Source: Minisyncoccia bacterium (GTDB lineage Bacteria; Patescibacteriota; Minisyncoccia; Phycocordibacterales; UBA9973). From it: a stretch of DNA of 64,000 nt. The notes beneath the pieces were generated by a model. That model did no database searches. It was not told the origin of the DNA and worked only from the letters and a program-made list of their open reading frames with translations. Positions 21,132 through 39,046 of this stretch are shown piece after piece. Positions within the stretch are counted from its first letter, which is position 1. The number at the start of each line of letters is the position of its first letter. The DNA is taken from NCBI GenBank assembly GCA_965656375.1, contig CBFHKH010000001.1, positions 409,319 to 473,318 of the forward strand. The letters are read 5' to 3'. A program made the position numbers and the translations under genes.

Positions 21132-21563
21132 CTATTTTACCATATTTAGGTATTTTTGTGCTTTTTCTAGGGTCTCTTTACGAGTGCTAAAAGTAAACAA
21201 TTCCAAGGCTTCTTCGTACGTTGCCCATTTGTAGTTAGATATTTCACTATTGTCTATATCTACATCTTTATTATCCACAAAGCCCATGAAGTGTTCATTC
21301 ACTTTGAGCTTTCTTTCTCCATCACGAGAGATCTCATATTCTTCATAGATAAGAGGAATATCGAGCAAATCGATTTTAGATATTCCTGTTTCTTCTTTCA
21401 GTTCCCGTAACGCTGTTTCTTTTGGTGACTCACTCCCTTCATGATGCCCTTTGGGGAACGTCCACCAACTCGGGGTATTGTTGTATGTCTGCTGTAAGAT
21501 CAGGAAGAGATTTTGCTCTCCTTTGTATACAACAATAACTCCATAGCATTGTTCTTTTGGCAT
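21132..21563 (-). CDS. NUDIX hydrolase
   Basis: Nudix box GHHEGSESPKETALRELKEETGI. Confidence 0.8.
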   Translation of the reverse strand: MPKEQCYGVIVVYKGEQNLFLILQQTYNNTPSWWTFPKGHHEGSESPKETALRELKEETGISKIDLLDIPLIYEEYEISRDGERKLKVNEHFMGFVDNKDVDIDNSEISNYKWATYEEALELFTFSTRKETLEKAQKYLNMVK

Positions 21564-24500
21564 TACTTTAAAAGTTTAACCTTAAATTCTAATTCATCGA
21601 TCTTGATCTCGATTCCGTTTGTCTTCCCTATCGCTACATCTTTTGCCCCAACAATTTTCATAAGTTCATCTTTAAATGTATTTACTATATCTTTGCCTTG
21701 GTCACTCGTCTCAATTTCAAGTGTGATAACATCGCTTGGATTTAATCCTTCTTTCTTGCGCATATCTTGAATTGCACGAACAAGTTCACGATACTGACCT
21801 TCTTTCTTGAGTTCAGGAGTAATTTCTAATTCCATGCTAATTTCGGTCATAGTTAAATTTTCAATTTCAGTTATTTCTACGTCCTTTATATTTAACTCGT
21901 CTTTAATTATGGAAAGATAATTCTCTGTTTTAGGAAAACCAATGCTGGAGTTTATTCTCACATTTGCTTTATTTAATGGTTGTCTAACTTTTATTTTATT
22001 TTTTTGTCTATTTTCAAGACCTAGAGTAATAACCATTCTCACAAATTCCATATTTTGAATAACATTCCCGCCCATTTCTAGTACTTTAGGCCATTCTACA
22101 AGATGCACACTTTCTTGATCAGAATCATTCTTCAACTTCTGCCAAATATCTTCCGCTGCAAATGGTGCAAACGGTGCCATAATTTTTGTAAGGGTCTTGA
22201 GCACAAAGTAAAGCGTTCGCTTTGCATCTCTATCATCATCTTTCAGGCGATCGCGTGAACGACGTACATACCAAGTAGAGAGTTCATCGATAAATTCTCG
22301 AATACCCCGTACAGGCTCGAGAAGCTTGTAGGTATCCATATGCTTTGTCGCATCTGTAATGAGCATATTAAGTCTTGCTAGTATCCACTGATCAAGAATA
22401 TTTGCGCTTTCAGGATTCGAATTTTCATTTTCGATTTCTTTGTCTCGATAGAGTTCATAGAATGCGAGCACATTGTAGAGCAAATTGAATACCTGCTGGT
22501 GAAGTAGCGAAACAGTTTTTTCATCGAAGTTCTTTGATTCACCTGGCTGATTCACCGAATACATCCACAGACGAAGCGTGTCCACGCCATATTTTTCCAT
22601 CATGAGCCATGGGTCAACGATATTGCCTTGGGATTTCGACATTTTTTTACCTTTCTCATCGAGAATATGACCAAGACAAATAACATTTGTATATGCTTTG
22701 CCCCGCTCCATAAGTACGCCGATCGCATGGAGTGTATAGAACCATCCACGAGTCTGATCGATAGCTTCACAGATAAAGTCTGCAGGGAATCCTTTTCTAT
22801 CAATCCATTCCTTATTTTCAAATGGATAGTGATCCTGTGCAAATGGCATAGCTCCAGAATCGAACCATACATCCATCACCTCTTTGACTCGCACCATCTC
22901 TTCACCATCGGATCCGATGAGCGTTACTTGGTCGATATATGGCTTGTGGAAGTCGAGTTCGTATTCTTCATTGTGTGGAATCGGAACAAATGGCAATTCT
23001 CGGACTTCAGCATTGCTAAATCTTTTGAAATCAGAAACGAACACATGAGTATTTGCAACTTGGTAATCTTTACCCTTTGGAGTGAATAACCCTGCATTGA
23101 CGTAGCACACCCAGGCAGGTCCACCGTGAGTAACAATGAGAATATTCTTTCCTTTATATTTTTCTTCGAGCTCATAGAGGACCGCAGCTGTTCGCTTCTG
23201 TACATCTTTAAGAGATTCCCCACCGCCAATATGCTCAGTAAACCACCCTGGTCCCCCATGCTTGTATACATAGTCATGATATTCGTTCCAATTCTTGCCA
23301 TCAAAATCGCCGGGATTGATCTCAACCAATCGGTCATCGTATATAATTGCGCTCTTGTCTATCCCAATATTCTCAGCGACGAGTTCTGCGGTCTCGCGAG
23401 TACGAGTAAATGAAGATGCGATAATGATATCTATATTCTTGTGTTTGAGATCATGTTCTGCAGTTTTGATAACTCCTTCTCTACCTGCCTCTGTCAGGTT
23501 GTCATCAACTTGTAGTTTGTAACTCACGAGTTCATGGGCATTGCCTTCTGTTCCTCCATGACGCATGACAAAATATTTGTTACCGGACTTCTTTGTCTTT
23601 TCTTTGAGCTCATCCAAGCTTCCAATAACTAGAAATGTACCATCTGCCTTCTGCCAGATCGGAAGTGGTGTACCCCAATATCGCTCACGAGAGATTGCCC
23701 AGTCTTTAATGTCTTTGAGCCATTCGCCAAAGCGTCCCACGCGAATATGTGACGGCTCCCAATTGATGGATTTATTTTGCTCGATTAATTCTTGCTTTAC
23801 ATGCTCATTCGACATGCGGATATACCATGAATCACGTGCATAGTAGATGAGCGGAGTTTTACAACGCCAACAGTGTGGATATGAGTGCTCGTATTTTTCC
23901 TTCTTGAACAGGAGTCCTCGATGTGCCAAGTTTTTGATGATATCGACGGCGACATCTTCGTCTTTGACAAATCGTTTAGAGAGGAAGTCCGTCCCTTCGA
24001 TAAAGTGCCCAGATGCATCGACGGTATGGAATTTTGGAAGCCCGATTTTCGTTCCAAGATCAAAGTCATCAGCACCATACATCACTGCTGTATGTACGAT
24101 ACCCGTCCCATCTTCGGTATTCACGAAATCCGCTTCGTAGACTTTGTATGCTTCTTTCAATCGTGGGTCGTCCTTACCAAGCTCTGCTAAATATGGATAC
24201 AATGGTTCATATTCCATACCTACCATCTCAGACCCTTTATGTTCTGCTACAATTTCATAATTCTCTGTAACTATAGAGAGTCTTTCTTTTGCAAGGACAA
24301 GAATTTCTTCTCCAACTTTTACTTCTACATACACAATATCTTTCCCAACAGCGAGAGCGACATTACCAGGTAGTGTCCATGGTGTTGTCGTCCAGGCGAG
24401 AAAGTATCCATTATCGCTAAAGTTTCCTTTTGCTTTGATTTTGAATTTTGCCGTTACAGAGAGATCCTTCACATCTTCATATCCTTGAGCAAGCTCGTGT

Positions 24501-25075
24501 GATGAAAGCGCAGTACCACAACGTGGACACCACGGTACGACTTTGTAATCTTTATAAAGAAGATTCCTCTTCTGTACTTCTTTGAGCACATTCCATACTG
24601 ATTCAATATATTCATTGTGATAGGTCACATACGGATTCTCCTGGTCTACCCAGTAGCCAATACGCTTTGTGAATTTATTCCAAATATCGAGATATTCCCA
24701 TACAGATTCCTTGCATTCCTTGTTGAATGCTGCGATGCCATACTCCTCGATTGCTTTCTTTGAATCAAGTCCGAGCTTCTTTTCTACTTGAAGTTCCACA
24801 GGCAGACCATGAGTATCCCAGCCTCCCTTGCGACGAACATGATATCCACGCATTGTCTTGTATCGTGGAATTGCATCCTTGAACGCACGTGCTTCGAGGT
24901 GGTGGATTCCTGGCTTGCCATTGGCAGTTGGTGGGCCCTCGTAGAATACGAATTCCTTTTTGCCCTCGGACTGAGAAAGAGATTTTGCGAAAATATTATT
25001 CTCTTTCCAGAATTCCAAGATCCGCTCTTCTCGAGCGGAAGCTTCACTATTTTTGTTTTCTTTTTCTTTATCCAT
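21563..25075 (-). CDS. ileS: Isoleucyl-tRNA synthetase (type 2, Thermus/eukaryote-like) carrying an inserted histidine-phosphatase (PGM/GpmB-like) domain
   Basis: PPTANG...; CP1 editing signature WTTTPWTLPGN; WAISRERYWGTPLPIW; DVWFDSG; KMSKS. About 190 aa (aa 497-690, nt 23006-23587) between PLPIW and HKPYID match RHGGTEGN...IIASSFTRTRETAE...DDRL.E...GGES...LIVTHGG of histidine phosphatases. Confidence 0.95.
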   Translation of the reverse strand: MDKEKENKNSEASAREERILEFWKENNIFAKSLSQSEGKKEFVFYEGPPTANGKPGIHHLEARAFKDAIPRYKTMRGYHVRRKGGWDTHGLPVELQVEKKLGLDSKKAIEEYGIAAFNKECKESVWEYLDIWNKFTKRIGYWVDQENPYVTYHNEYIESVWNVLKEVQKRNLLYKDYKVVPWCPRCGTALSSHELAQGYEDVKDLSVTAKFKIKAKGNFSDNGYFLAWTTTPWTLPGNVALAVGKDIVYVEVKVGEEILVLAKERLSIVTENYEIVAEHKGSEMVGMEYEPLYPYLAELGKDDPRLKEAYKVYEADFVNTEDGTGIVHTAVMYGADDFDLGTKIGLPKFHTVDASGHFIEGTDFLSKRFVKDEDVAVDIIKNLAHRGLLFKKEKYEHSYPHCWRCKTPLIYYARDSWYIRMSNEHVKQELIEQNKSINWEPSHIRVGRFGEWLKDIKDWAISRERYWGTPLPIWQKADGTFLVIGSLDELKEKTKKSGNKYFVMRHGGTEGNAHELVSYKLQVDDNLTEAGREGVIKTAEHDLKHKNIDIIIASSFTRTRETAELVAENIGIDKSAIIYDDRLVEINPGDFDGKNWNEYHDYVYKHGGPGWFTEHIGGGESLKDVQKRTAAVLYELEEKYKGKNILIVTHGGPAWVCYVNAGLFTPKGKDYQVANTHVFVSDFKRFSNAEVRELPFVPIPHNEEYELDFHKPYIDQVTLIGSDGEEMVRVKEVMDVWFDSGAMPFAQDHYPFENKEWIDRKGFPADFICEAIDQTRGWFYTLHAIGVLMERGKAYTNVICLGHILDEKGKKMSKSQGNIVDPWLMMEKYGVDTLRLWMYSVNQPGESKNFDEKTVSLLHQQVFNLLYNVLAFYELYRDKEIENENSNPESANILDQWILARLNMLITDATKHMDTYKLLEPVRGIREFIDELSTWYVRRSRDRLKDDDRDAKRTLYFVLKTLTKIMAPFAPFAAEDIWQKLKNDSDQESVHLVEWPKVLEMGGNVIQNMEFVRMVITLGLENRQKNKIKVRQPLNKANVRINSSIGFPKTENYLSIIKDELNIKDVEITEIENLTMTEISMELEITPELKKEGQYRELVRAIQDMRKKEGLNPSDVITLEIETSDQGKDIVNTFKDELMKIVGAKDVAIGKTNGIEIKIDELEFKVKLLK

Positions 25076-25097
25076 AGTGTTATAAAATCCCGCAAAT

Positions 25098-25103
25098 TAT
25101 ATT
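25098..25103 (-). promoter_or_regulatory. Possible proximal -10 (TATAAT) for ileS
   Basis: TATAAT on the minus strand about 22 nt upstream of the ileS ATG; no clear -35. Confidence 0.3.
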
Positions 25104-25195
25104 CTTTCCTCGGGTCCTCGGGTTGGTTCACCAGACCGGCTCGGAAATAAAATAATTTGCTCGATTTCTTTTCTTATAACTTGCTTCAATGAATG

Positions 25196-25285
25196 GAGCG
25201 AATTATTTTATGAAAAACAGTCTGGCCTCGCTCCGCTCCCGAATTTAGTGCGAGGAGATCCGAGGACTTTTTTCAGAATATAATT
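25196..25285. repeat. About 90-bp intergenic repeat element, copy A (imperfect palindrome; ends in TTTTTTCAGAATATAATT)
   Basis: About 90% identical to 38953-39046, including a CCTCGC...GCGAGG inner stem and AAAAAAGTC/GACTnTTTTT outer arms. Both copies sit just upstream of minus-strand genes. Confidence 0.7.
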
Positions 25286-25299
25286 CGCGTAATGACCAT

Positions 25300-25660
25300 A
25301 ATAATTAAAACTCGTCCACGTACAACAATTAAATAATTGCTATACAAGGACGAGTTTCACTTCGTGGTACCACCTTGTTTACTTCTCATTTGTAGGGCTC
25401 TACTCCCCCGTAAGGGTTTCTTCCCAAAGCTCCAGGGTGATAGCCCTTTCACTGCTTATACTTTAAGAATACAATCAAAAAGCGAATTTTGCAATACGGC
25501 TTGCATTTTAATGAAAAGTGAGTAGGATACTAGCATACGTTGTACATTCCGCTTTGTGTTTAGCTACTAGGGGTAATACCCTATCACTGATTACTTGTCG
25601 GGCCCACTTAAACGTCTCACCCGAGTATCTAACCTGTGATCAGACAGATAAACACACTGG
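25300..25660 (-). ncRNA. T-box riboswitch leader of ileS (antiterminator 25345-25377; terminator 25300-25358)
   Basis: Minus-strand antiterminator CAAGG-UGGUACC-ACGA(AGUGAAAC)UCGU-CCUUG with the canonical 7-nt UGGNACC bulge. The overlapping terminator AAACUCGUCC...GGACGAGUUUUAAUU shares the 3' strand. Upstream GUAAUCAG offers an AUC(A) specifier candidate. A TTGTAT-N18-TATATT promoter lies at about 25660-25695. Confidence 0.6.
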
Positions 25661-25736
25661 TACAACTACTCAATATATAAAAAGCTCCCCGATCCATACA
25701 AAGGGGGCTTTTTTTTATTAACATCTTGCACATAAA

Positions 25737-25771
25737 AATGCCATCGGTTATAACCGATGGCATTTTATCAT
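25737..25771. terminator. Bidirectional terminator
   Basis: aatgccatcgg-ttataa-ccgatggcatt perfect 11-bp hairpin with T-runs on both strands; terminates the 25784-26275 gene. A second weaker hairpin gctcccc...gggggc with a T-run lies at 25683-25712. Confidence 0.65.
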
Positions 25772-25783
25772 TCGAAAAAAGCA

Positions 25784-26275
25784 CTACTTAAAAATATCTT
25801 TAAAAGCTATGAAAAACTTTTGCCATTTTATACGCTTCTCTGCAAGCGTACCAATACCACCTTCAAGCAGGTATGGCCTGAGCCACAGTTTATCTTTCGC
25901 ATCCTTATAGATCTCTTCTTCCAAGGCAACAATTGCTGCCAGAAAAGAATACGGACCTCCAGGCCACAAAAGTTTCATCAGTGCTTCGTTTGGCACTATA
26001 TCGAAATTTGTTGACACTGAAAGTATCCCCGATCCCTGGGGACCAACTTTTACTACCAAATTAAAGCCACGTAATTGGCCAGGTGTTTGGAGGCCGTAGA
26101 ACGTGAGGGCAAGGTTGTGCTTGTCTTCAGTTACAGCTACATACGCTGTATCTTTCTTTTTTTCCCACGCTGTAAGGTAGAAATGAAGAGGTTCTTTTTC
26201 ACGCTCAGGATATACCGTAAGAGCGCCTTCCTTGTTTTGGGCAAGGGCGAATGTGTTTACTACGTAATTTTTCAT
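25784..26275 (-). CDS. Hypothetical protein (163 aa)
   Basis: ORF with no recognisable motif. Confidence 0.5.
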   Translation of the reverse strand: MKNYVVNTFALAQNKEGALTVYPEREKEPLHFYLTAWEKKKDTAYVAVTEDKHNLALTFYGLQTPGQLRGFNLVVKVGPQGSGILSVSTNFDIVPNEALMKLLWPGGPYSFLAAIVALEEEIYKDAKDKLWLRPYLLEGGIGTLAEKRIKWQKFFIAFKDIFK

Positions 26276-26336: not shown

Positions 26337-28034
26337 TTACATCTTCTCTGGAGTCTTTATACCAAGGAGATAAAGACCATTTTGCATCGTCTGATGAAAC
26401 GCTTCAACTAATGCTACGCGATAATTTGAATATGGATCACTTTTATTCACAATCATTGTATTGCCATAGAATGTATTGAACGCGCTCGCAAGCTCTGTAA
26501 GATACGTAGCGATATGATGTGGCTCAAGGAGTGTATAGGAACGTGCTACAACTTCTGGAAATTGATACAAAGTCTTCTCGAGTATTGTGATTTCACTTGG
26601 AATGTCTGTATATGCTGCACAGATACCTTCCGCTTCTGCCTTCTTTTGTATGGAGTTTGCGCGCACAGCTGTGTATTGTAAATATGGTCCTGAATCTCCG
26701 TCAAATGAAATAGATTTCTCGAAATCGTAGATAATATCACCAGTGAGTGATGAGCGGAGTATCGAATATTTTACTGCCGATACACCGACTATCTTTGCGA
26801 TATTTTCTTTTTCTTCATCACTGAGGTCTCTTTCTTTTACTTTCTCACCAACGACATCCATAGAGTCACGGATGAGCGACTCACCAGTAATGACATTCCC
26901 TTTTCGGGAAGACATCTTTCCTGAAGCAAACTTCATCATGCCGTGAGTAATATGCTTCATCCGCTTTTCATAGTCAGGATGAATGAGTGACACTGCTTTC
27001 TGGACTACTTTCATGTATTCTCCTTGTTCGATCGCTGTGATAATAATAGAAAGATCAGGATTTTCCTTTTCAAACTTGGTCATCATGAGACCAATCTCTT
27101 TTGTCTCATAAAGTGGAATACCCATAGAAGTAATAAATACCCGAGTATGGAGCTTGGGATCATAATTCTCTGCATGGAAAACTATCGCTCCATCGCTTTC
27201 TGTAAATACACTGCCGAGATTCTCTTCAACGATCTTCTTTCCAATTGGCGCCATTTCACTTTCAAAGAAATAGTGATTAAACCTTGTTCCGAGAAGCGCA
27301 TAGATCTCTTCAAATGCATCAAGAGTTACTTTCCTTCCCCAATCATATATTGTATTAATCTCATCATCACTTCGGTCATACACTTTTTTGTTTATGGAAT
27401 CAATTTCTTTTTTCTTTGCTTCATCTGTATCATATGCATCACTTCCTTTTGCATACTGCTCGCCGATCCAGAGCGCACCTTTGCCTTCGTATGATTCACC
27501 AGAATTCATAATACCGTAGATAGCTTTGGCAACATGGGGGCCAACATCACCTTGGTAGTTTGCACGAATTGTATCTGCTCCAGAATATTCAGTAATACGA
27601 GCGATGGATTCGCCGATAGCATTCGTCATAAGGTGTCCAATGTGGAATGGCTTGAATGGATTCGGATCAGTGTATTCCACCATAATCTTTTTACCTTTGA
27701 CTTCTTCATTTTTTCCCCAGTTTTCCTTTTTCTTCAAAATCTCTTTAACACTCTCTGCAAAGAATTCATGTGAAAGATAAAAGTTTATGAATCCCGCACC
27801 GGCAACTTCTAGTTTCGAGATTTCCTTTGGTTGTTCTTTTTCGATTTCTGCTTTTATCTTCTCTGCGAGTTCTCGAGGGTTACTGCCAACTTGTTTTGCG
27901 TATGCCATTGCAACATTTGTCGAATAGTCACCAAAATTTATATCAGAAGGATGCTCAAGGGCAATAGACCCGGCTTCGATACCGAGATTCTTTAATGCTT
28001 CTTTTATTGATGATGAGAGTATATCTTTAATCAT
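26337..28034 (-). CDS. argS: Arginyl-tRNA synthetase
   Basis: N-terminal Add-1 domain, HIGH (FHIGHLM) and a KMSK-like MSSRKGN motif, plus the DALR anticodon-binding C-terminus. Confidence 0.9.
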   Translation of the reverse strand: MIKDILSSSIKEALKNLGIEAGSIALEHPSDINFGDYSTNVAMAYAKQVGSNPRELAEKIKAEIEKEQPKEISKLEVAGAGFINFYLSHEFFAESVKEILKKKENWGKNEEVKGKKIMVEYTDPNPFKPFHIGHLMTNAIGESIARITEYSGADTIRANYQGDVGPHVAKAIYGIMNSGESYEGKGALWIGEQYAKGSDAYDTDEAKKKEIDSINKKVYDRSDDEINTIYDWGRKVTLDAFEEIYALLGTRFNHYFFESEMAPIGKKIVEENLGSVFTESDGAIVFHAENYDPKLHTRVFITSMGIPLYETKEIGLMMTKFEKENPDLSIIITAIEQGEYMKVVQKAVSLIHPDYEKRMKHITHGMMKFASGKMSSRKGNVITGESLIRDSMDVVGEKVKERDLSDEEKENIAKIVGVSAVKYSILRSSLTGDIIYDFEKSISFDGDSGPYLQYTAVRANSIQKKAEAEGICAAYTDIPSEITILEKTLYQFPEVVARSYTLLEPHHIATYLTELASAFNTFYGNTMIVNKSDPYSNYRVALVEAFHQTMQNGLYLLGIKTPEKM

Positions 28035-38952: not shown

Positions 38953-39046
38953 GAGCGAAACAAATTACTTTATGAAAAATAGTCTGGCCTCGCTCCTTTA
39001 GAAATTTAGTGCGAGGAGAACCGAGGACTTTTTTCAGAATATAATT
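38953..39046. repeat. About 90-bp intergenic repeat element, copy B
   Basis: About 90% identical to 25196-25285. Lies between the MacB-like permease stop and the start of the 38508-38945 gene. Confidence 0.7.

Follow-up and report, generated by a model that had tools for sequence, protein, structure and literature searches.

T-box riboswitches are regarded as a trait of the Firmicutes, the Actinobacteria, the Chloroflexi and Deinococcus-Thermus (TBDB preprint). Within the family, an ultrashort Stem I is a feature of translational T-boxes, most of them actinobacterial (PMC7583486); a 2026 review equates the ultrashort class with the translational ileS class (PMC12990946), and the short-Stem-I model of TBDB was searched only in Actinobacteria (PMC7778990). 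Here we describe a leader with an ultrashort Stem I that lies upstream of ileS in a Minisyncoccia bacterium, a member of the Candidate Phyla Radiation (CPR; Patescibacteria). The DNA analysed, which we call the window, is a stretch of 64,000 nucleotides (nt) of contig CBFHKH010000001.1 (assembly GCA_965656375.1, positions 409,319 to 473,318); positions below are those of the window, and all features of the ileS region lie on its minus strand. An initial annotation, made from the letters alone, had proposed a T-box leader at ileS in a CPR-like organism, and a match to the Rfam family, conservation, covariation and folding energetics all bear this out. The element is very probably a functional, tRNA-Ile-responsive T-box attenuator of ileS in a very reduced form. 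A literature search, which was incomplete, found no paper on T-boxes in the CPR, Patescibacteria, Parcubacteria or Saccharibacteria.

The Rfam T-box model, RF00230, matched the window at 25461..25343 with an E-value of 8e-9 locally and 5e-7 over the whole window. The match appeared in E-value mode only; a default Rfam scan of the window returned no match, and standard annotation misses the element because its score is below the Rfam gathering threshold. The initial annotation had counted the lack of an RF00230 hit against a T-box, and to the letter there is none at the gathering threshold (the score is 46.2 bits), whereas the E-value match is clear. In the alignment the fit is good for the K-turn, for the T-box sequence with its GGUGGUACC.CG and for the antiterminator; 76 model positions of the distal Stem I are replaced by 6 nt, and the regions of Stem II and Stem III are deleted or misaligned. 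Not one of 20 relatives tested reached the gathering threshold, and nine that we scored one by one with RF00230 obtained 39-68 bits. Even complete members score in this range, because Stem I is ultrashort in all of them. The whole patescibacterial T-box clade is sub-threshold in Rfam, and standard annotation therefore overlooks it.

Over about 113 nt, the sensing domain comprises a K-turn, a 4-bp Stem I, a Stem II that contains an S-turn, a purine linker and the antiterminator. Its ultrashort Stem I (25427..25457), which Rfam aligns to the base of the canonical Stem I, is built from a basal helix AAGC/GCUU, the K-turn, a 4-bp helix AGGG/CCCU and a 6-nt terminal loop, CUAUCA. The putative K-turn motif reads AAGC-AGU-GA...GA-GCUU, with AGU as the bulge and tandem G.A pairs. 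Both helices covary among relatives (92-98% of alignment cells paired, with AU/UA/GC exchanges). Because the loop follows after 4 bp, the stem has no elbow-binding distal domain; it has a K-turn and an isoleucine codon in the loop, and not the distal AGAGA/GNUGA-type motifs of the long Stem I that had been expected. The codon is AUC at 25439..25441, followed by the purine A25438. AUC followed by a purine was present in the Stem I loop of every related ileS leader that we read by eye, the loop reading NNAUC(A/G) also in leaders that carry an extra hairpin (see below), and AUC is the loop codon in 31 of the leaders of the genome set that the model aligned with a simple terminal loop. The specifier originally suggested, GUAAUCAGUGA at about 25597..25587, must be given up: it lies upstream of the conserved promoter, in a region that no relative has, and scores 2.5 bits with the family model.

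Stem II (25395..25425) has the sequence GGG-AAGAAA-CCCU-UAC-GGGG-GAGUAGAG-CCC. Among relatives the pattern GGGAAGAAA...AGUAGARCCC is conserved, and the inner helix is variable in sequence with strong covariation (CG/UA/GC/AU exchanges). The S-turn is AGUA/GAA, and the window contains GAAGAAA/AGUAGA. After Stem II comes a single-stranded, purine-rich linker of 17 nt, UACAAAUGAGAAGUAAA (25378..25394), within which AUGAGAAG is conserved. This linker occupies the site at which relatives have a Stem IIA/B pseudoknot and a Stem III. The Stem IIA/B element, about 21 nt long and GACGGGUAAGCCCGUUAUAGC in relatives, is absent from the window, Stem II itself being present, and the Stem III helix is absent as well: AGAAG-U joins AAACAA-GG directly, with the flanking purines kept, at the position where L060, L063 and L028 (in our numbering of loci) have a covarying hairpin. 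Since the distal part of Stem I, the Stem IIA/B pseudoknot and Stem III are all missing, the element is a reduced variant rather than the 'textbook' T-box it had been expected to be. Folded alone, the sensing domain does not give the comparative structure as its minimum-free-energy fold, and it scores no better than shuffled sequence (z = -0.28). Our structural claims rest on covariation, since the non-canonical motifs are expected to defeat thermodynamic folding.

Downstream of the linker is the antiterminator (25345..25377), which was found where the initial annotation had placed it. It lies 270-302 nt upstream of the ileS ATG and reads CAAGG-UGGUACC-ACGA-AGUGAAAC-UCGU-CCUUG, that is, helix A1 (CAAGG/CCUUG), the 7-nt bulge UGGUACC (25372..25366), helix A2 (ACGA/UCGU) and the loop AGUGAAAC. 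Across members, 97-99% of the cells of A1 and A2 are paired and compensatory changes are present; the closing pair of A2 exchanges A-U with G-C, the latter in 7 of 41 members. The bulge presents UGGU in all members read, which predicts A73 as the discriminator base of the tRNA. A73 is usual for bacterial tRNA-Ile, and one metagenome locus contains a tRNA-Ile(UAU) with A73. Eight relatives (L005, L025, L027, L004, L039, L049, L062 and L075) have an extra hairpin inside the A2 terminal loop that the window does not have; it recalls the 'stem Sa' insertion reported for staphylococcal glyS T-boxes (PMC9177973).

The alternative structure is an intrinsic terminator hairpin (25306..25359, core stem 25354..25311). 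When 25461..25296 is folded to minimum free energy, this hairpin dominates, as a helix of 24 bp interrupted by a single mismatch. Its stem, AAACUCGUCC...GGACGAGUUU, continues inward as GUAUAGCAAUU/AAUUGUUGUAC, and a U-rich tail, UUUUAAUUAUUAU, recognized from its sequence, comes after it at 25298..25310. The strand 25345..25359 is common to both hairpins, as the initial annotation had also stated for the 3' strand of the antiterminator, and the two folds are mutually exclusive, an arrangement that relatives also have. The calculated free energies are -30.4 kcal/mol for the terminator and -5.3 kcal/mol for the antiterminator, and by this model (-30 versus -5 kcal/mol) the default state of the switch is predicted to be termination.

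To compare the element with its relatives we fetched, by means of the isoleucyl-tRNA synthetase (IleRS), 80 related ileS loci from Paceibacteria-type genomes. An exact GGTGGNACC(A/G)CG core was present 80-340 nt upstream of ileS in 42 of the 80 (one being cut by the end of its contig), and the sequences around the core can be aligned. A covariance model, R1, built on seven sequences of the short form and on six helices that we assigned by eye, gave a single match in the window (130.9 bits) and recovered the same 42 genome loci of the 80 and no others. In this genome set 95.6% of the cells are paired, 15 of the 24 pairs are changed on both sides, and there are 93 compensatory cells, as compared with 24.9 +/- 4.6 in shuffles, none of which (0/500) reached 93; when the pairing partners were slid against each other, paired cells fell to 30-56%. 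A pattern scan of metagenome contigs supplied at least 120 further instances. Of these loci R1 was run on 80, and it matched 77. This independent metagenome set has 95.5% paired cells, compensatory changes at 19 of the 24 pairs, and 216 compensatory cells versus 62 in shuffles; the outer helix of Stem II is uninformative in this set because it was fixed by the search pattern. All six helices are backed by compensatory changes. The T-box is patchy in its distribution at ileS even among close relatives, 38 of the 80 related genomes, L002 and L007 among them, being without one. In L002, whose IleRS is 82% identical, ileS follows argS by about 35 nt.

Further evidence came from members of the family that precede other genes. 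Among the metagenome loci, GUC stands at the loop position before valS (five loci were tested, with 489-838 bits to valS models), GAC stands there before aspS at two loci, and AAC stands there before an operon for an HD hydrolase and an Asp-tRNA(Asn)/AsnRS-type ligase. This agreement of the loop codon with the downstream gene for Ile, Val, Asp and Asn confirms that the specifier is the codon in the loop, and since the GUC, GAC and AAC members have the same compact architecture, the class is not restricted to ileS. In the leaders of Val, Asp and Asn members that we read by eye, a hairpin and a U tract follow the antiterminator too. The non-Ile loci are L083, L084, L095, L096, L098, L101, L107, L120 and L121, together with L125, L129, L148, L151, L154, L176, L184 and L200.

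How typical is the reduced layout of the window? Sorting the 42 genomes by the distance from Stem II to the T-box sequence gave four classes. Eight carry a IIA/B element resembling GACGGGUAAGCCCGUUAUAGC together with a Stem III hairpin that covaries, eight have IIA/B only, and five have Stem III only; the window belongs, with its closest relatives, to the remaining 21, which lack both modules. The distance is 21 nt in the window, as against 38-74 nt in members with IIA/B, Stem III or both. Among the metagenome matches listed, 58 of 120 are of the minimal type, a fraction to be read with the fact that the search pattern could not capture members with both modules. In L050, the most complete relative shown, Rfam aligns the modules to Stem II with AGUA, to IIA/B (CCGUUA) and to Stem III, and because of this alignment the IIA/B and Stem III modules of the relatives can be taken as homologous to the canonical ones. 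Their absence from the window is most simply read as loss, a direction of change that we infer. The module classes are interspersed relative to IleRS identity, which suggests repeated loss.

The conserved promoter abuts the element. A predicted -35 box, TTGCAA (25489..25494), and a predicted -10 box, TATTCT (25466..25471), were assigned from sequence and positional conservation; they are separated by a 17-nt spacer, and the -10 box ends 8 nt before 25457, where the basal helix of Stem I begins. In 25 of 38 relatives a TTGnnn-16/17-TAnnnT arrangement ends 5-8 nt before the first helix. Given this proximity, the transcript is predicted to start almost at Stem I, a few nucleotides before the K-turn. 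A promoter proposed earlier, TTGTAT-N18-TATATT (25701..25672), coincides in part with a terminator-like hairpin that belongs to the upstream gene, and the comparison with relatives lends it no support. A generic promoter scan misses this candidate as well as the conserved promoter.

On these assignments the leader would operate as follows. Transcription from the adjacent promoter would start at about 25460, and the nascent RNA would fold the ultrashort Stem I and present AUC in its terminal loop, where the S-turn of Stem II would clamp the codon-anticodon duplex as it does in actinobacterial ileS T-boxes. The 3' ACCA end of uncharged tRNA-Ile(GAU) would then pair with UGGU in the bulge (25372..25369), and this pairing would stabilize the weak antiterminator (25377..25345) so that RNA polymerase reads into ileS. 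With the tRNA charged or absent, the stabler terminator (25359..25306 and the U-rich tail) would form and transcription would stop. The binding of tRNA and the sensing of its charge are put forward here by homology with T-boxes that have been studied, the start site and termination in vivo are presumed from the predicted signals, and the element would presumably work although three parts, the distal Stem I, the Stem IIA/B pseudoknot and Stem III, are missing.

Several observations weigh against this interpretation. The score of 46.2 bits is half of the RF00230 gathering score of 93. The elbow-binding distal Stem I has been called essential in transcriptional T-boxes, deletion of the IIA/B pseudoknot cost about 1200-fold in tRNA binding, and Stem III has been called 'indispensable' for the discriminator (PMC7583486). 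The A2 pair beside the bulge is A-U or G-C and not the G.U wobble described as a steric sensor, and the U tract of the window, UUUUAAUUAUUAU, is weaker than the 6-8 consecutive U of relatives. A search for tRNA genes found none in the window and six in 200 loci, none of them a tRNA-Ile(GAU). Finally, two inserted repeat units separate the terminator from ileS (see below) and may contain a promoter that bypasses the switch; a search of them by eye gave only weak -35-like matches before the TATATT of the repeat arm.

Could the element act instead on translation, with a sequestrator and an anti-sequestrator, as the ultrashort ileS T-boxes of Actinobacteria do? Its decoder, an ultrashort Stem I backed by Stem II, is like that of the Actinobacteria (PMC7583486), the hairpin ends only 10-20 nt before the ATG in some relatives, and these genes have no obvious Shine-Dalgarno sequence, so that a big hairpin nearby could hinder initiation. 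Yet the alternative hairpin, of about 17-22 bp in relatives, bears the marks of an intrinsic terminator: the base of its stem is rich in GC, and a run of 6-8 U comes after it in nearly all members. Moreover, its distance from the ATG varies from 10 to 275 nt across relatives (where the script picked that hairpin), and the terminator of the window ends 225 nt before the ileS ATG and pairs with nothing near the start codon. The variable distance and the U tract together fit transcription attenuation rather than masking of the start site, and we consider translational control improbable. That the resemblance is due to chance, the leader being an ordinary terminator or a hairpin-rich spacer that happens to contain UGGUACC, would be in keeping with the lack of a match at the Rfam gathering threshold and with the unremarkable fold of the sensing domain (z = -0.28). 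This explanation is refuted by the E-value of 5e-7 against all of Rfam over the window, by the 42 related genomes with the element at the same position and with covariation, and by the agreement of loop codon and downstream gene across members.

A third explanation is that the element is a decaying relic that does not sense tRNA, being either inert or a constitutive partial terminator; expression of ileS would then depend on read-through or on a promoter within the repeat units. In its favor, the element lacks modules that model systems are reported to need, its U tract is shortened, repeats of about 210 nt in all have entered the leader downstream of it, and about half of the related genomes do without a T-box at ileS. 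Decay is nevertheless hard to square with the finding that the same minimal layout recurs in half of the genome members (21/42) and in 58 of the 120 metagenome matches listed, with AUC and UGGUACC unchanged in the members read and the AUGAGAAG linker conserved, or with minimal forms whose GUC, GAC and AAC codons are matched to valS, aspS and the AsnRS-like gene. Indeed, the compensatory changes in every helix imply purifying selection on a folded, codon-presenting RNA, and we regard a relic as very improbable. Thus, a tRNA-responsive attenuator remains the interpretation that we favor. We also lean, if only slightly, toward a broader proposal, namely that the Patescibacteria possess a distinct, unannotated class of T-boxes that joins an actinobacterial-style decoder to a Firmicute-style terminator at ileS, valS, aspS and an AsnRS-like gene, and in which about half of the members, this one included, are sensors of about 113 nt without the elbow contact, IIA/B or Stem III. 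Alternatively, a lineage-specific factor may make up for the parts that are missing.

The T-box had also been held to account for the non-coding region of about 700 nt upstream of ileS. It does so in part: the promoter and the T-box make up about 200 nt, and the rest consists of other hairpins, unique sequence and repeat units. Two terminator-like hairpins follow the upstream open reading frame (ORF) at about 25770..25682, and some 190 nt at 25680..25500 are unique to this genome, with no counterpart in any relative. Within the unique sequence is a Stem-I-like piece of 24 nt (25594..25571), TAATCAGTGATAGGG-TATTACCC, with AUU-A in the equivalent loop; its local alignment score of 26 compares with 16.7 +/- 2.3 in shuffles, of which 2 in 500 scored as high. 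It may be a relic of duplication or a chance likeness. A tandem T-box was rejected, as no T-box core follows the piece. In L008, L020 and L040 the argS stop codon comes almost directly before the T-box promoter, which gives the upstream ORF, with the sequence on either side of it, the look of an insertion specific to this genome.

Between the terminator and ileS, the 5' untranslated region contains two hairpin repeat units that are not part of the T-box: unit A (25200..25292), and unit B (25085..25195), which ends about 10 nt before the ileS ATG. The 236-nt spacer that holds both units folds with z = -4.8. The units are about 95 nt long and have a closing stem, GCRAAUUAU/AUAAUUYGC, with compensatory changes. 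Unit A has one further copy at 38963..39046, where it precedes another gene, and one in L008; the copies of unit B in L001, L005 and L020 have the opposite orientation to the one in the window. Thus the repeats come in two subtypes and in either orientation, each lying in a 5' leader and ending some 10-35 nt before a start codon. They had no match in Rfam, and the family may represent a mobile hairpin resembling a miniature inverted-repeat transposable element or a leader RNA element.

The regulated gene, ileS (21563..25075, with its ATG at 25075), encodes an IleRS of 1170 amino acids (TIGR00392, 889 bits). The best relatives of its N-terminal 400 residues are 63-86% identical and come from metagenome-assembled genomes labeled Paceibacterota, Nomurabacteria, Zambryskiibacteriota and 'uncultured Saccharibacteria'. 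The synthetase has a domain of the histidine-phosphatase superfamily inserted between the two halves of its core (22976..23590, amino acids ~495-700; PF00300 at amino acids 502-684, E = 3e-31, with the RHG motif 'MRHGG'). All but one of the 80 related ileS loci (79 of 80) encode the same insertion, whether or not they have a T-box, and our literature search gave no paper on it. The upstream neighbor is an ORF of 163 amino acids (25784..26275) with no Pfam or NCBIfam match, and further upstream, on the same strand as ileS, is argS (26337..28034).

If the broader proposal is correct, the sensors of about 113 nt would be the smallest natural T-boxes, and they would provide a natural counter-example both to the need for the elbow contact in co-transcriptional T-boxes and to an indispensable Stem III. 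The family amounts to a natural series of one riboswitch in forms that have or lack the distal Stem I, the IIA/B pseudoknot and Stem III, down to a sensor of about 113 nt that is still coupled to a terminator, and in this series it could be tested which modules are required for the fast co-transcriptional recognition of a tRNA and its charging state. Being so small, its members could serve as scaffolds in structural studies and in the engineering of tRNA sensors. They would also indicate cis-regulatory RNA control of aminoacyl-tRNA synthetases in organisms thought to regulate little. Because T-boxes have been regarded as a trait of other phyla (TBDB preprint), their occurrence in the CPR bears on the branching of the CPR or on gene transfer.

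Finally, we compare the element with the known systems to which it is closest. It resembles the actinobacterial ileS T-boxes (of Mycobacterium and Nocardia, 'class II' of TBDB; structures 6UFG and 6UFM, as given in PMC7583486) in its gene, ileS, in a specifier AUC followed by A, and in having that specifier in a terminal loop just above the K-turn with no elbow-binding distal domain. In both, a Stem II with an S-turn follows at once, the purine run has almost the same positions, and a UGGNACC bulge lies between A1 and A2 helices. Numbered from the basal helix of Stem I, the codon of the window is at 17-19 and the A at 20, as compared with C18/A19 in N. farcinica. Unlike the actinobacterial elements, the leader of the window has a terminator far from the start codon and no Shine-Dalgarno sequestrator. 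The actinobacterial RNAs retain the Stem IIA/B pseudoknot and Stem III (that of M. tuberculosis has both, PMC11297988), whereas the window has neither, and the actinobacterial class has been described for ileS, whereas the present design belongs to a patescibacterial host lineage and is found also at Val, Asp and Asn genes.

The element follows the same logic as the leaders of Firmicutes, such as B. subtilis tyrS and glyQS: codon-anticodon and UGGN/NCCA pairing favor an antiterminator over a competing intrinsic terminator. It also has their K-turn at the foot of Stem I and their S-turn within Stem II, shares the preference for specifiers of the form NNC, and matches AGGGUGGNACCGCG at 12 of 14 positions. 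It differs from them in lacking a long Stem I with a specifier internal loop, an AG bulge and distal interdigitated T-loops, in lacking the IIA/B pseudoknot and Stem III, and in closing A2 with A-U where theirs is closed with G.U; its sensing domain measures about 113 nt against about 180-220 nt in canonical Firmicutes leaders. The natural 'minimal' T-boxes so far have been the glyQS glycine T-boxes, which likewise have a reduced architecture and keep the terminator. The glyQS leaders drop Stem II and IIA/B and keep a full-length Stem I, the elbow contact and Stem III (PMC7583486, PMC11297988); in the window, by contrast, it is Stem II that is kept, and the distal part of Stem I is missing along with IIA/B and Stem III. 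As judged from its sequence, then, the element of the window is an actinobacterial-class decoder joined to a Firmicute-class expression platform, with neither pseudoknot nor Stem III between them.

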